This document shows positions 12,269 to 34,079 of a stretch of 64,000 nucleotides of DNA, in pieces. A program made the position numbers and the translations under genes. The notes under the pieces are model-generated. The model was not told the origin of the DNA. It worked only from the letters and a program-made list of their open reading frames with translations, and did not search any database. This DNA comes from a virus. The stretch spans positions 32,001 through 96,000 of the IMG/VR virus record IMGVR_UViG_3300018080_000123; one strand, written 5' to 3'. Numbering within the stretch: the stretch's first letter is position 1; every line of letters starts with the position of its first letter.

Positions 12269-12290
12269 TGTCCTCTCCTCCTTAAAAAGG

Positions 12291-12391
12291 GCGCTGGGGG
12301 TCTGGTTAGCTGCTAGCTACTCTGAGCTTTATACCCTGTGCACTTACCGGGTCTAGAACCCGGGTTGGGCGAGCCAGCCTCGCCCCAGCGC
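12291..12391 (-). ncRNA. Candidate structured RNA with a T-loop-like arm
   Basis: GC-rich intergenic island. Closing stem GCGCUGGGG/CCCCAGCGC followed by a U-tract. Internal hairpins include CCGGG-UUCUAGA-CCCGG. Confidence 0.45.
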
Positions 12392-12449
12392 TATGTCTTG
12401 TACATTACTCCCGACGGAGCGGCTTTTATAATACCCACTTGGGGCGAAT

Positions 12450-12947: not shown

Positions 12948-13237
12948 TACTTAACCTCCTTTACCTCAAACTTACGACAATACTCATTCTGACCGCTCGC
13001 CTTGTAGTACTCTTTCAGCATTGTATAGATATAGTACGCCTTGCAGTAGTCCCACCTGTACTCTGCTCCATCGGTTTTGATTGAAAGGCCATTTCCATTG
13101 TCGTGAAGCTTCCCGCAAGCACCGCCAGGCTTAGTCCAGCTCTTATCAAATTCAGAGTATTTCATATTTGCGTTATGATCATCGCACTCTACCTCATAAA
13201 GGCCACCCTCCTGAGGAACAAGTAGAAACTTTTTCAT
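12947..13237 (-). CDS. Hypothetical protein
   Basis: Coupled ORF. Confidence 0.5.
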   Translation of the reverse strand: MKKFLLVPQEGGLYEVECDDHNANMKYSEFDKSWTKPGGACGKLHDNGNGLSIKTDGAEYRWDYCKAYYIYTMLKEYYKASGQNEYCRKFEVKEVK

Positions 13238-13238
13238 A

Positions 13239-13526
13239 TCACTCCTCCCAATTCATCGGGGCATTGCTTTCGCACTCAAAAGCATAATCCATAGATTTCG
13301 GACAATCATCATCAAAACAGCAAACGACTTCCCGATAGGTCCCGAAATCATGAGAAAAGCTTTTCACCACAAGCTTGGCATTTTCAGGTTCTGGACCAAG
13401 CTTCTTACGAATTAGATCGATAAACCGACGACATTCCTGGCGAGATTTCATCTCGTAATCTTCATCTCCAAGCTGAGCACACAGCTCGTCCCCTGGAGCA
13501 GGTCCTATCTCAACAAAATCTTTCAT
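13239..13526 (-). CDS. Hypothetical phage protein
   Basis: IGPAP..E.CAQLG and HDFGTY.EV motifs, strong RBS. Confidence 0.55.
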   Translation of the reverse strand: MKDFVEIGPAPGDELCAQLGDEDYEMKSRQECRRFIDLIRKKLGPEPENAKLVVKSFSHDFGTYREVVCCFDDDCPKSMDYAFECESNAPMNWEE

Positions 13527-13560: not shown

Positions 13561-13863
13561 TCAAGAGAAAGATCCAGCTAAAAGTACATAGATTACAAAG
13601 CTGTTCCACAGTATAATCGCCCCATGCAAAACCCCAAGGATTCCAAGAGCGTAGACAGCTTTAGGGTAGTATTTGGCCGTTAGTCCTAAAATTGCTACTA
13701 CCCAGCAAAATAATAGTAACAAAGCCCAATCAACCCCTATTAGCCTCATCAGATAATTCGCTATTGGATTGGCCTCGCTCCCACCCATGCCTAGCGCAAT
13801 TCGCGTTAAATACACATCAAGAAACTTAAGCATTATGTTGAGAGCTAATAGTTGTTTGATCAT
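13561..13863 (-). CDS. DUF5658-like membrane protein
   Basis: LD..LT...L..G..EANP motif, multiple TM helices. Confidence 0.6.
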   Translation of the reverse strand: MIKQLLALNIMLKFLDVYLTRIALGMGGSEANPIANYLMRLIGVDWALLLLFCWVVAILGLTAKYYPKAVYALGILGVLHGAIILWNSFVIYVLLAGSFS

Positions 13864-13881
13864 TCCCTTTCCTTTTTCTGT

Positions 13882-14009
13882 GTACTCGGCCCGATGGACG
13901 TGTTAGGACGGCCATCGGGTGGACGTATTCGCAGAGGCCATAGAGAGTGGCGGTTTTCTATGGCTTACCCTAACACCTAACCGTCCGATCCGCCTACAGA
14001 CCCGAGCAC
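13882..14009 (-). ncRNA. Candidate double-pseudoknot structured RNA
   Basis: Four nested helices plus two pseudoknot pairings (5 bp and 8 bp) in a 128-nt intergenic region. Strand inferred from context. Confidence 0.6.
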
Positions 14010-14032
14010 TATATTTGAGCACACGCCTCCGC

Positions 14033-15001
14033 TTATTTATAGTCATACAAATCACCTATTGATGTATCGGTATGGACACACGAAATCGCCTGAGCAAGAA
14101 GTCTAGCTACCGATATAATCTGAATCTTATCAGAGTTTTCGATTCGTTCTTCAAGCTTAATTGTATCGGTTATAATTAATTCTGTTAATGATTCGGACCG
14201 TTCTATTCTATCCATTGTCCATCCGGAAAGTACCGGATGGGTAACTGCTGCCCTTACATCTTCCGCTCCTTTTTCTTTCAACACGTCGGCCGCTAAAAGC
14301 AGCGTTCCGGCCGTATCACACATATCATCAAGAATAAAAATATCTCTTCCCTTCACATCTCCAATAATCTCCATCGTCTCAATTTTATTATGCTCATTCC
14401 GCCTCTTACTCATCACCGCCAAAGGGACACCTAAATGTTTAGCAAATATGTGAGCCCTCCCCGCGCCTCCAGCATCTGGCGAAACAATTGTAAGCTTATC
14501 GTCCCATGAATAGCGCTCTTCAATGTATTGAACAAATAATGGGCCGGCTAAAAGATGATCAACTGGAATGTTGAAGAAACCTTGGATTTGCGGTGAATGA
14601 AGATCAATAGTAATCACTCGATCTGCTCCTGAAACCGTGATCAGATCTGCTACTAATTTAGCTGTGATAGCTGTTCGAGGGGAAGTCTTGCGATCTTGTC
14701 TTGCATACCCGAAGTAAGGAATTACAGCCGTCACTCTACCAGCTGAAGCTCTCTTTAGGGCATCGATTATGATTAGAAGCTCCATTAAGGTTTCATTGGC
14801 AGGCGAGCTAGTGGATTGAACAACGAACACATCCTCTCCTCTCACGCTTTCCTCTACCTTTACAAATAACTCTTTGTCGTCGAAGCGCCTTCCCGACATC
14901 TGGCCCAGAGTAACGCAACGACTAAGCAAAACGCTCAAATCCACAACTACACCGCTAGCAAGACTCATGGAAGCAGTTCCACAGAAAACTTTGATACCCA
15001 T
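14033..15001 (-). CDS. prs: Ribose-phosphate pyrophosphokinase (PRPP synthetase)
   Basis: PYFGYARQDRK, DLHSPQIQGFF, VSPDAGG, DDMCDTAGT. Confidence 0.95.
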   Translation of the reverse strand: MGIKVFCGTASMSLASGVVVDLSVLLSRCVTLGQMSGRRFDDKELFVKVEESVRGEDVFVVQSTSSPANETLMELLIIIDALKRASAGRVTAVIPYFGYARQDRKTSPRTAITAKLVADLITVSGADRVITIDLHSPQIQGFFNIPVDHLLAGPLFVQYIEERYSWDDKLTIVSPDAGGAGRAHIFAKHLGVPLAVMSKRRNEHNKIETMEIIGDVKGRDIFILDDMCDTAGTLLLAADVLKEKGAEDVRAAVTHPVLSGWTMDRIERSESLTELIITDTIKLEERIENSDKIQIISVARLLAQAISCVHTDTSIGDLYDYK

Positions 15002-15010
15002 TTCTTCTCC

Positions 15011-15835
15011 TCAAAAAATAATACTTGCCGGAGTATCCCAGCTTGTATACATATGTCCATCTTCAGCAAAAATCAAGCTTCGGATATCATTTGTTCTATT
15101 ACAGCTTTGCATACACGTGTCAATATGCATCACCGAAATTCCTTCGTAATCATAGACGCGCCCGCCATGGACCATCTCGCGCACCAAATCAAGACCTGCC
15201 TCATTCATTTGCTCTACATATTTATAATACAAGCTTTGTGGGGCAAATTTTTCAATCCACCCTCTAGTCCCCCAACCTCCCGACATACGTTGAGGACACA
15301 TAATTCGTCGCAACGAGAATTGTCTAACCTTTGTTCGCTTACACTCCTCAATCATTCTTTGAAAAGTATCCTGAGCATTAAGAATGCTCGTTACATTCAT
15401 CGCCACTCTAACTGTTATTCCTTCCTTATCGAGATAGTCAAACAACTTCTCGAACTTCTGAAAGTCATTCATACAATCAAACGAGAAAGCAACAACATTG
15501 AACTTGAGGTCGCTAAACTGCGTAAGAAATTTAACATCATTCTCCTCGAATCGATTCAAGAGACGAAGTCCGTTTGTTTGGACTTCGAGAGGAAAATCGT
15601 TGAACTGAGTGGTAAAATAGAACAAATCATCCCAGTTCATAAAAGGCTCGCCCTTGCCAGTAATCAAAACACACGCCACACCGGCAAGCTTAGCCATCAT
15701 ACGAACCTTACGAATATTTACGCCCATACGATAGATGTTAGGCGTAACTTCTGGAGTCATATTACTTACGCAATATGCACACTTCTTATCACATCCCTTA
15801 TTCGGCAGACAAATCGTCAGACTTTGCGCCTTCAT
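15011..15835 (-). CDS. Radical SAM protein
   Basis: CDKKCAYC (CxxxCxxC), TGKGEP, TNG. Confidence 0.85.
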   Translation of the reverse strand: MKAQSLTICLPNKGCDKKCAYCVSNMTPEVTPNIYRMGVNIRKVRMMAKLAGVACVLITGKGEPFMNWDDLFYFTTQFNDFPLEVQTNGLRLLNRFEENDVKFLTQFSDLKFNVVAFSFDCMNDFQKFEKLFDYLDKEGITVRVAMNVTSILNAQDTFQRMIEECKRTKVRQFSLRRIMCPQRMSGGWGTRGWIEKFAPQSLYYKYVEQMNEAGLDLVREMVHGGRVYDYEGISVMHIDTCMQSCNRTNDIRSLIFAEDGHMYTSWDTPASIIF

Positions 15836-16914: not shown

Positions 16915-16987
16915 CTCCGGGGATAGGATTCGAACCTATATATTTCTGATTAACAGTCAGACTCATTGCCAGTTATGATACCCCGGA
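16915..16987 (-). tRNA. tRNA-Asn(GUU), CCA not encoded
   Basis: Cloverleaf TCCGGGG TA TCAT-AACTGGCA-ATGA G TCTGA-CTGTTAA-TCAGA AATAT ATAGG-TTCGAAT-CCTAT CCCCGGA G. Confidence 0.9.
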
Positions 16988-23314: not shown

Positions 23315-24781
23315 TTATGAACGCCCAATGTTCTTCACGATACAATTCTTGCGAGGTGTATACATATGAAGAGCACCGTACATCAGCTGCATCCATCGAT
23401 AGTTCGTACCAAGCAATGCAAGGTCGATCTTCATCATGGTAAGAAGCTGTTTGAACGCAAAGTTGTCCTCGTTTACCTGCATGAGGTAAGCTTTGGACAA
23501 ACCAGGCATACTAGCGTTGAAGTCAATATCCAAATCACGGAAGTCACCGTCACCAGCGTGGAAGTTTGCAGGCTTCACGCGGCCGATAAACTCATGATTG
23601 CTCGACCCAGCCTTGGGTGAGCGGAAGATATTGAAATACTGAACACCACTCGGATTCGAACCCGGGAGAATATCCAGCACGACTTTGTCGCCAGCGGCCA
23701 CGGTAACTGCCTTAGCAGCGCTTGCCAACGTTTCACCGTCGGAATACACTGCTGAACACTTATACTCGTAAGCGCCAACGTCAACAGCCGCAAACTGAGA
23801 ACTACCAGAAGCCGGGCTGTTGTCGCCTGAGTTCGCATCCTGAAGGGTAGGGGCCGATTCAGCTGAAACGGCCGCAGCCAACGGAATACGACGAGGACGC
23901 TGGAACACGCCAGACTTAAGGTTGAAAGTACCAGAACCGGAAACGAACTGCTTCACAACGTAACCAGCTTTTCCTTCCATACCGAGCGTATTGATGCGCT
24001 CCTTGGCATAGAAAGCACGACTGAAGTCACTGTGGGCTTTCGTATCCATATACATATCCGTGCACATACCGAAATTGTTGGCCTGAACGAGGGCTGCCTC
24101 TTCGAGGATTTCCTCATCCAAAACCTCTCCACTCTGGAGATCATTTCGTTTGTCGAGGATGATGGTATCTGCGCCACTCAGCACATTGTAACCATCAAAG
24201 GCCTGAGCTTTAAACTCAGCCTGGCTCTCTTTGTCGCCAATCTGCTTATCAATACCGTCGAATTCGAGGCCATTGATTGAACTGTCGGCTGAAAAGAGGG
24301 CTCGCTCAAGCTGGGCCAGAATCCAAAGAGCACCATTCTTGATCTCTCTCTGAACGATCGGACCATGAGCTTGCCTAACCAGCATAACGTCGTGGTTAAT
24401 CTGTTTCTGAACGCCCATGTACTTGATCTGCACCACGTTTCGGTCATAACCGGAATCCGCAGTTGCTGGAGCCGAGGCCATTGTGAAAAATGGAGGAATC
24501 TGGGCGCCATAACTGTTGTTCGTATTCGCTTGTTCAACCGTGTTGTATGCAGGAGTCTTCGGAATATCATTCCAAAGAAGCAGGTGCTTTTGTTCGTGGG
24601 TCACCACTCGGAGGGTCTTATCCAAAGATTCGACCTGGAGAGCGGGAGCACCTGTAAAATCACCCGGAAGAGTATCCGAATAATTTTGGCTTGCAAAGCT
24701 GAGGGCTTTGCTGATTTCTTCAAGAAGCTGGGGAGCATCAGCTCCAAAACCAGTCAATGAAGAAGGATTGCTATTTTGCAT
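23315..24781 (-). CDS. Major capsid protein (SPO1/phage K-like type)
   Basis: 488 aa, downstream of protease and scaffold. N-terminal ISK|AL...ALQVESLD and C-terminal LMYGAL..YTPRK...VKNI. Codon bias of a highly expressed gene. Confidence 0.85.
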   Translation of the reverse strand: MQNSNPSSLTGFGADAPQLLEEISKALSFASQNYSDTLPGDFTGAPALQVESLDKTLRVVTHEQKHLLLWNDIPKTPAYNTVEQANTNNSYGAQIPPFFTMASAPATADSGYDRNVVQIKYMGVQKQINHDVMLVRQAHGPIVQREIKNGALWILAQLERALFSADSSINGLEFDGIDKQIGDKESQAEFKAQAFDGYNVLSGADTIILDKRNDLQSGEVLDEEILEEAALVQANNFGMCTDMYMDTKAHSDFSRAFYAKERINTLGMEGKAGYVVKQFVSGSGTFNLKSGVFQRPRRIPLAAAVSAESAPTLQDANSGDNSPASGSSQFAAVDVGAYEYKCSAVYSDGETLASAAKAVTVAAGDKVVLDILPGSNPSGVQYFNIFRSPKAGSSNHEFIGRVKPANFHAGDGDFRDLDIDFNASMPGLSKAYLMQVNEDNFAFKQLLTMMKIDLALLGTNYRWMQLMYGALHMYTPRKNCIVKNIGRS

Positions 24782-33258: not shown

Positions 33259-33451
33259 TTTTTCTCTCCTCTATTTCGTTAAGCCGACATAACCAAGTAA
33301 ACAGCTTAGCAATTCGACATTCATAAAGAGCTATCCGCTCTAAATTTCCTGGTCTAGCTCTTTCAAGCGGATCCCAGAAAAGCTTATTTATTTTTTCTTG
33401 AAGCTGGTCTCGTTTTCTTATTACCATTGCTTTCATTGGATGAATGTACAT
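33242..33451 (-). CDS. Hypothetical protein
   Basis: Overlaps the DGC 3' end. Confidence 0.4.
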   Translation of the reverse strand: MYIHPMKAMVIRKRDQLQEKINKLFWDPLERARPGNLERIALYECRIAKLFTWLCRLNEIEERKNGNKN

Positions 33452-34079
33452 GTCTAATCACCCCATGGCCATAGCCTTCATGGCTAAAATCCATAATTGT
33501 AGTAAATACTAATGAATCTTTTTTTTCTTTAGCGATATACATGCCCCGATCAGCCGCTGTAATTAGCTCTTCTGCTTTGTCTCCTTTACTATATGATACA
33601 ACCCCCATACTGGCCGTAACCTTAATTGAATCATACTTAAACCTCATTTTCCTGTGGAGACGTTCGTAAAAATCAGCTGCTTTGTTAGGAGATTTGTTTA
33701 AGCTAATCACAACAAATTCTTCTCCTCCCCAGCGAAATGCCTTATCATAGGATCGAGTTTGCTGACGTAAAGTTTCTCCTACTTTTTTAAGAATTTTATC
33801 TCCTACTGCATGCCCATGAGTGTCGTTGATCTGTTTAAAGTTGTCCAAATCAATAAAACCAAGAGATAAAACTCCACCAATCCGATCGCATTGGTTGGTC
33901 AACTCTTCAAAATACCTATAGAAAGACTTGCGATGATGCAAACCTGTAAGCTCATCGCAAAAACTAATGCCAAATTTTTCTAGAAAATCAATGAGTTTTG
34001 TAGCGAGAATGAGCGAACAATCGTTTTTGTGCTCATCGATAAATAGAGTCAGTTCGCCTGTGAAATTGTCCTTTTTCAT
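33384..34079 (-). CDS. Diguanylate cyclase (GGDEF domain)
   Basis: DELTGL, DLDNFKQINDTHGHAVGD, I-site RSYD, RWGGEEF, ADRGMY.AK. Confidence 0.92.
   Translation of the reverse strand: MKKDNFTGELTLFIDEHKNDCSLILATKLIDFLEKFGISFCDELTGLHHRKSFYRYFEELTNQCDRIGGVLSLGFIDLDNFKQINDTHGHAVGDKILKKVGETLRQQTRSYDKAFRWGGEEFVVISLNKSPNKAADFYERLHRKMRFKYDSIKVTASMGVVSYSKGDKAEELITAADRGMYIAKEKKDSLVFTTIMDFSHEGYGHGVIRHVHSSNESNGNKKTRPASRKNK

Follow-up and report, generated by a model that had tools for sequence, protein, structure and literature searches.

A probable pseudoknotted RNA domain conserved in the prs-DUF5658 spacer of an uncultured sediment phage

What occupies a long spacer in a phage genome that leaves almost no room between its genes, and does the phage make use of it? 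The question is raised by an uncultured sediment phage whose source record is a 113,606-bp virus with direct terminal repeats, rated complete; bases 32001-96000 of that record form the window analysed here, a stretch of 64,000 nucleotides to which all positions below refer. The genes around the locus all lie on the minus strand, and adjacent genes overlap or sit a few bases apart. Because neighbouring same-strand genes are so tightly packed, the 169-nt spacer between prs and a DUF5658 gene is exceptional, one of very few long ones. The upstream gene, prs (14033-15001, minus strand; Pfam PF13793, PF14572 and PF00156), encodes a ribose-phosphate pyrophosphokinase, and the downstream gene (13561-13863, minus strand; Pfam PF18902, E 4e-6) encodes a 100-aa membrane protein with four helices. 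A preliminary description, made from the sequence alone, had proposed that the element filling this spacer is a compact RNA of six helices, two of them formed by loop pairings, that might represent a new motif.

All the complementary stretches named in that description are present on the minus strand: P1, P2, P3, P4, the loop pairings and an alternative form of P1. Among them are the GGACG (13986-13982) and CGUCC (13925-13921) strands of P2, which are complementary as sequence, the CCGCC of the P3 loop with an upstream GGCGG, and CCUAACAC in the P4 loop, which is complementary over 8 bp to an upstream GUGUUAGG. Helices of this length are far more numerous than shuffling predicts. The 128-nt core holds three perfect Watson-Crick helices of at least 8 bp against a mean of 0.083 in dinucleotide shuffles, and none of 3000 such shuffles contained three or more. 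P3, P4 and the 8-bp loop-junction pairing are also recovered independently by a repeat search. In composition the element stands out from the window (57.7% against 39.6% G+C) and ranks with the highest 0.2% of all 130-nt windows. The nested minimum free energy (MFE) fold recovers P1-P4, with z-scores mild enough (-1.8 for the minus and -0.9 for the plus strand) that thermodynamics is unconvincing alone. Another GC-rich peak, at 878-1007, was considered as a further RNA and set aside, as it lies inside an ORF and has a z-score of +0.4.

The sole relative found to carry the element, in protein-anchored and pattern searches alike, is the phage contig IMGVR_UViG_3300018080_000170. Identity there reaches 92% for prs and 77% for the DUF5658 protein, and the spacer lies in the same place. 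The two spacers align with 17 differences over 166 columns and 0 gaps, an identity of 90% compared with 74-84% for the flanking DNA. The structure of the preliminary description had been drawn without the homologue's sequence and was then scored on this alignment, where it shows a compensatory pair in each of P3, P4 and GGCGG/CCGCC, three in all, together with three one-sided changes of the G-U type (P1, P4 and GGCGG/CCGCC) and one break, in P2. When the same 17 substitutions were placed at random 200,000 times, the probability of at least three compensatory pairs with at most one break was 5e-5. The pairings are thus kept in the one homologue, with compensatory changes, apart from P2. That helix was given up: GGACG/CGUCC has a G.G mismatch in the only homologue, and the sole break disappears when it is replaced by P2', a hairpin proposed by RNAalifold (alignment columns 36-39 with 49-52) that is also part of the homologue's own MFE fold. 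One of the six helices originally drawn had thus been drawn wrongly.

In the revised structure, read 5' to 3' along the minus strand, the domain is preceded by the prs stop codon (14035-14033) and a 23-nt spacer. This segment (14010-14035) is identical in the homologue at 26/26 positions and contains GGAGG and the first copy of GUGCUC; a role for it as a promoter was rejected, as no minus-strand promoter-like site was seen in the spacer and its motif is unique within the window. P1 pairs GUGCUCGG (14002-14009) over 8 bp with CCGAGUAC (13889-13882), and one G-U pair of the window is G-C in the homologue. The alternative P1, whose 5' strand carries the duplicated GUGCUC, would pair 14023-14016 with 13887-13880; its outermost pair is lost in the homologue through a C-to-A change. 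P2' (13984-14000) consists of a 4-bp stem (14000-13997 with 13987-13984) and a 9-nt loop that holds GGCGG (13994-13990); it accommodates three more of the substitutions, as a compensatory swap of G-C to C-G and a change of U.G to C-G. The junction strand J2/3, GUGUUAGG (13969-13976), leads into P3 (13931-13968), in whose 8-bp stem (13964-13957 with 13944-13937) a C-G pair has become U-A. A possible 3-bp extension of P3, termed P3a, would pair 13968-66 with 13933-31. The 12-nt loop of P3 holds CCGCC (13953-13949), which pairs with the GGCGG of the P2' loop, and here one C-G pair is replaced by U-A and one G-C pair by G-U. One more U-to-C change is compatible either with P3a or with a loop-junction pairing lengthened by 2 bp. 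The next junction strand, J3/4 or CUCUGCGAAUACGUCCA (13920-13936), is invariant at 17/17 positions and includes the 3' half of the discarded P2. P4 (13890-13919) has an 8-bp stem (13919-13912 with 13897-13890), with a compensatory change of G-C to A-U and a change of U-A to U-G, and a 14-nt loop that holds CCUAACAC (13907-13900); the 3' strand of P1 adjoins it with zero linker. The domain ends 18 nt before the DUF5658 start codon, at the same position in both phages, and gives way to the A-rich, unpaired leader of that gene (13861-13881), with the Shine-Dalgarno sequence AGGA (13873-13870) 9 nt after P1 and the AUG at 13863-13861.

All pairs of the revised structure (44/44) form in both sequences, with four compensatory changes, five one-sided changes and no breaks. 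In simulation, at least four compensatory changes have a probability of 3e-6 and the lack of any break one of 8e-4; both values are in part circular, since the alignment itself served to identify P2' and P3a. Of the differences in the core, 13/16 lie at paired positions, where no pair is broken, and when partners were slid by 1-3 columns as a control, pairing dropped from 100% to 33-46%. Because only two sequences are available, there are at most four independent compensatory events and R-scape-type statistics are impossible. From this comparison of two sequences, the base pairs of the approximately 128-nt domain (13882-14009) have evidently been kept by selection, and the element is very probably a real and conserved RNA structure of the minus strand. 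In a tightly packed phage genome, a spacer that stays more constant than the genes and in which double mutations repair pairs is a spacer that does something.

The best-supported fold, judged from the aligned sequences, would be a four-way junction in which P1 closes the three hairpins P2', P3 and P4. Since P2' puts GGCGG into a hairpin loop, its pairing with CCGCC becomes a loop-loop kiss, and the contact between loops 2 and 3 is best described as a putative 5-bp kissing helix. Loop 4 is predicted to pair with the strand between P2' and P3 in a pseudoknot of 8-10 bp (PK2), comprising 8 perfect bp that can be extended to 10, with a duplex energy of about -10 to -14 kcal/mol. As PK2 is invariant in both sequences, the argument for it comes from chance expectation and energy rather than from covariation, and J2/3 has a possible competing nested pairing (alignment columns 59-63 with 110-115). 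The zero linker between P1 and P4 makes their coaxial stacking likely, and PK2, which adjoins P3, would be able to stack on it. The model suggests two parallel helical stacks joined at both ends, by the kiss of loops 2 and 3 and by loop 4, in what would be a closed, globular fold with every loop engaged. Within 128 nt, the fold would unite a four-way junction with both a kissing loop and a loop-junction pseudoknot, a complexity typical of riboswitch aptamers, ribozymes and protein-operator RNAs.

The strand, which the preliminary description had left uncertain, is settled by the G-U pairs. There are five, of which the window has three and the homologue two; on the opposite strand or in DNA, each would turn into an A.C mismatch, so that the pairings belong to the minus (gene) strand and to an RNA rather than a DNA-level site; the minus strand also gives the better fold. 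A plus-strand or DNA-level element was rejected on the same ground. It is accordingly highly improbable that the locus has no RNA function and is a GC-rich neutral spacer, the gene of a small basic protein, or a DNA site, for example an origin or a palindrome bound by protein. Such explanations can draw on the helices, which double as DNA inverted repeats, and on one frame of 40-50 codons that is open in both phages. However, 11/39 residues of that frame differ as a result of 12 base changes within it, which argues against purifying selection on a protein and led to the rejection of a small protein-coding gene, and the differences by codon position (8, 5 and 4 at positions 1, 2 and 3) are not enriched at third positions. 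The compensatory pattern, with its P of about 5e-5, weighs in the same direction as the G-U pairs.

Membership in a known family was examined with the 4227 covariance models of Rfam 15, at the gathering threshold and then at E<=10. This collection includes models of c-di-GMP-I/II, preQ1, ykkC/PRPP, purine and SAM, as well as of twister, hammerhead, HDV, pistol, hatchet, pRNA and Alpha_RBS. The only match in the window at the gathering threshold is a tRNA-Asn (16915-16987). At E<=10, neither the 141-nt core nor its homologue matches any family, and a 501-nt region around the element yields a single chance match to a snoRNA that lies outside it. The proposal of a new motif therefore survives in the sense that the element is uncatalogued in Rfam, but as a family it comprises two known members from thin sampling. 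It is best placed as a new fold within a known kind, that of structured leader or intercistronic RNAs, of which two phage sequences are known.

Its likenesses to described RNAs are partial. The closing stem P1 and the three arms P2', P3 and P4 have the topology of a cloverleaf, a resemblance of topology only. As in tRNA, the first arm has 4 bp and a 9-nt loop containing GG, and the last arm adjoins the closing stem with zero linker; unlike tRNA, the element has arms of 8 bp with 12-14-nt loops and a covarying loop contact of arm 1 with arm 2 rather than arm 3, with no D-loop/T-loop elbow. ARAGORN reports only the tRNA-Asn 3 kb away, and RF00005 has no match at E<=10. With the purine (RF00167) and lysine riboswitches the element shares a multi-helix junction closed by P1, its place in a 5' leader and two adjacent parallel hairpins joined by a Watson-Crick loop-loop kiss. 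It differs from them in having four helices rather than three or five, an extra loop-to-junction pseudoknot, no common conserved junction sequence, no visible expression platform and no Rfam match. SAM-I riboswitches likewise possess a P1-closed four-way junction, likely stacking of P1 on P4 and the pairing of a hairpin loop with a junction strand; in SAM-I this pseudoknot joins loop 2 to J3/4, compared with loop 4 and J2/3 here, and the element has an additional kissing loop and neither a sequence nor a covariance-model match. An aptamer-like fold with covariation support is present, from two sequences only, whereas no expression platform was found: there is no minus-strand terminator-like site in the spacer, the Shine-Dalgarno sequence and AUG are predicted to be unpaired, and the sole alternating element is a second 5' strand for P1.

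Protein-operator leaders, such as the S4 site of the Escherichia coli alpha operon (Alpha_RBS) and the leader of T4 gene 32, resemble the element in being pseudoknotted and close to a ribosome-binding site. The gene 32 leader, like the element, has a fold followed by an unstructured A-rich stretch. In contrast to these operators, the start site here lies outside the fold, no model matches, and the downstream product is a membrane protein rather than a candidate RNA-binding autoregulator. Twister and HDV-like ribozymes and exonuclease-resistant RNAs (xrRNAs) are similarly small RNAs, built around a multi-helix junction and closed by two long-range pairings. By inspection, the element differs from the two ribozymes in strand order and loop usage, and it has no Rfam match. 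HDV-like ribozymes form a nested double pseudoknot with the strand order P1-P2-P3-P3'-P1'-P4-P4'-P2'; membership in that group was rejected on inspection against this topology, as the 3' partners of both long-range helices sit within hairpin loops. Compared with the topology of twister, the two tertiary contacts of the element use two different hairpin loops.

The element appears to be rare. It is single-copy in the phage genome, and blastn with 11-base words finds no match to it among 50,697 phage records and 72,556 plasmids. Searches for related loci with the DUF5658 protein, prs and the capsid protein returned only one close relative, and DNA-pattern scans of IMG/VR, JGI metagenomes and GTDB genomes returned only the same relative together with chance matches. 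The covariance model R1 has no match at E<=0.01 in 79 prs loci, 86 pattern loci and the loci L171, L172 and L173. It also has none across 35 IMG/VR contigs of distant kin, four complete genomes among them, whose capsids are 42-48% identical. In five long records of these distant kin, which include the four complete genomes, neither prs nor DUF5658 is matched. A capsid that is 64% identical (P0152), encoded on a 111.6-kb contig, marks the closest intermediate relative.

The major capsid protein (23315-24781) sets apart a clade of uncultured phages, roughly 110-120 kb in size, within which it is 42-64% identical. A threshold of E<=1e-40 gives 82 relatives of this protein, the majority at 39-64% identity, whereas identity to the capsids of SPO1-like Herelleviridae is only about 31%. 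In the relative that carries the element, the radical-SAM gene beside prs (15011-15835) is missing and the blastn match restarts immediately beyond it. On the other side, the region of a 95-codon ORF (13239-13526; 13191-13515) cannot be aligned with the relative at the DNA level. Because of these two differences, the island around the RNA is variable, and prs, the RNA and the DUF5658 gene have been kept together within it. As the distant kin have no match to the RNA and the five long records none to prs or DUF5658, the prs-RNA-DUF5658 unit is, as far as these sequences go, an accessory island of one sublineage. The element itself may be private to that lineage.

The AlphaFold model of the DUF5658 protein predicts a four-helix membrane protein with a pLDDT of 96, and Foldseek finds no match to it in the PDB at E<=0.001, so that the fold provides no clue to a ligand. 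Among 5.8 billion proteins it has 2 close relatives, a set of 1.8 billion representatives holds 29 remote ones, and tblastn against phage records gives no match; its alignment is highly divergent and unsuitable as a seed for locus searches. For prs, the nearest named cellular homologues, in metagenome-assembled genomes of Nitrospirota/Thermodesulfovibrionales and Desulfobacterota, are 52-59% identical, and these relatives may hint at the host of the phage. A 484-aa ENA protein (P0004) is 51% identical to the phage prs with a bit score well above the cellular matches, and, encoded on a 61.9-kb contig, it looks like a longer relative of the phage type. A GGDEF diguanylate-cyclase domain (Pfam E 1.6e-38) is encoded in a 231-aa protein at 33384-34079 on the minus strand, 19 kb from the RNA element, and three ORFs just downstream of that gene have no Pfam match at E<=0.001.

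What the domain does is approached most readily from its place in the message. The prs-DUF5658 spacer has no minus-strand promoter-like or terminator-like site, and the domain is therefore probably contained in the prs-DUF5658 message. Public runs list no RNA-seq data set that contains the sequence, a result that counts neither for nor against. The reading preferred here, tentatively and as something short of probable, is that the element serves the DUF5658 cistron as a cis-acting leader, a sensor or an operator. Four features suggest it: the position of the domain, its aptamer-grade complexity, the invariant junction strands and the duplicated 5' strand of P1. On this reading, the domain would be transcribed inside the message running from prs to DUF5658, would act in cis as leader of the latter, and would bind either a protein or a small ligand. 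The state into which it folds, possibly the choice between the native and the alternative P1, would then set the use of the A-rich ribosome-binding stretch. In every fold predicted (MFE and centroid, with and without downstream sequence), the Shine-Dalgarno sequence and the AUG stay unpaired, and none of these folds sequesters the ribosome-binding site. The effect would come through ribosome loading or local mRNA decay, not through direct masking of the Shine-Dalgarno sequence. Against a leader function stand the want of a classical expression platform, with P1 stopping before the ribosome-binding sequence is reached, and the lack of any indicated ligand or protein partner. For the ligands named in the preliminary description, c-di-GMP, preQ1 and PRPP, the gene neighbourhood is the only pointer; prs beside the element and the cyclase 19 kb away make PRPP and c-di-GMP testable leads. 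It is doubtful that the domain forms the core, aptamer or catalytic, of a new riboswitch or ribozyme class carried on a phage accessory island. Such an RNA could, for example, sense a nucleotide-type signal, with PRPP synthetase encoded beside it and a GGDEF protein 19 kb away, and gate a small membrane protein during infection.

Some of the same observations fit an RNA that serves the transcript rather than a sensor. A processing, stability or insulation element, in which a knotted fold blocks exonucleases, is a possible but rather unlikely explanation. It might shield the 3' end of prs from 3'-5' decay or the DUF5658 message from an RNase J-like 5'-3' enzyme; in a variant, it would mark an endonuclease cut that gives the two cistrons different lifetimes and uncouples their translation. 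The intercistronic position, the lack of promoter or terminator signals and a ribosome-binding site that is free in every fold are all consistent with this, as is the closed topology with all loops engaged, as in nuclease-resistant RNAs such as the xrRNAs of flaviviruses and plant viruses. Yet stabilisers in bacteria are usually simple hairpins, a four-way junction with two tertiary contacts exceeds the known needs of such a job, and the element occurs once per genome instead of at many gene boundaries. A ribozyme of a new class that cleaves itself and so cuts the prs-DUF5658 transcript would account for the compactness with two tertiary contacts, which is akin to that of twister or HDV-like ribozymes, and for the invariant junction strands (J3/4 at 17/17), and intergenic regions of phages are a known habitat of small ribozymes. 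It is nonetheless very improbable: no Rfam ribozyme model matches at E<=10, the strand order is unlike the nested double pseudoknot of HDV and the loop usage unlike twister, new classes are rare, and nothing hints at a cleavage site.

The domain could also be cut from the operon transcript and act in trans as a stand-alone globular RNA, a decoy or scaffold for proteins or a mimic of tRNA, possibly directed at a host defence or RNA-processing enzyme. This seems unlikely, on evidence that is divided. The cloverleaf secondary structure, with a 4-bp arm and a 9-nt GG-containing loop in the position of the D-arm, points towards a mimic; no loop is left free for antisense pairing, as is the case in protein-binding RNAs; and 1.5 kb downstream there is a second candidate RNA, conserved and GC-rich, that has a T-arm-like hairpin. 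On the other hand, neither ARAGORN nor Rfam at E<=10 recognises a tRNA, the contacts between arm 1 and arm 2 and between arm 3 and the junction are unlike the elbow of tRNA, and the domain comes without a promoter or terminator of its own. If the element proves to be a sensor of a ligand or protein, as the preferred leader reading holds, it would be a rare phage-borne sensor RNA that controls an accessory gene, and it would offer a handle on the DUF5658 family. If it instead proves to be a nuclease block or a decoy, it would join an emerging set of phage RNA folds at gene boundaries.

The second candidate (12284-12430, minus strand) is a non-coding stretch of 60% G+C with a phosphoesterase gene on one side and a lipoprotein-like gene on the other. 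It is nearly invariant in the related phage, where the flanks are about 79% identical, and has no Rfam match at E<=10. A TATAAT-like box lies upstream of it. A 9-bp closing stem followed by a run of U can be drawn for this stretch, with a T-arm-like hairpin inside (CCGGG-UUCUAGA-CCCGG). Between this candidate and the lipoprotein-like gene, the related contig carries about 230 nt (L085:7480-7700) that are absent from the window and look like a small hydrophobic ORF.
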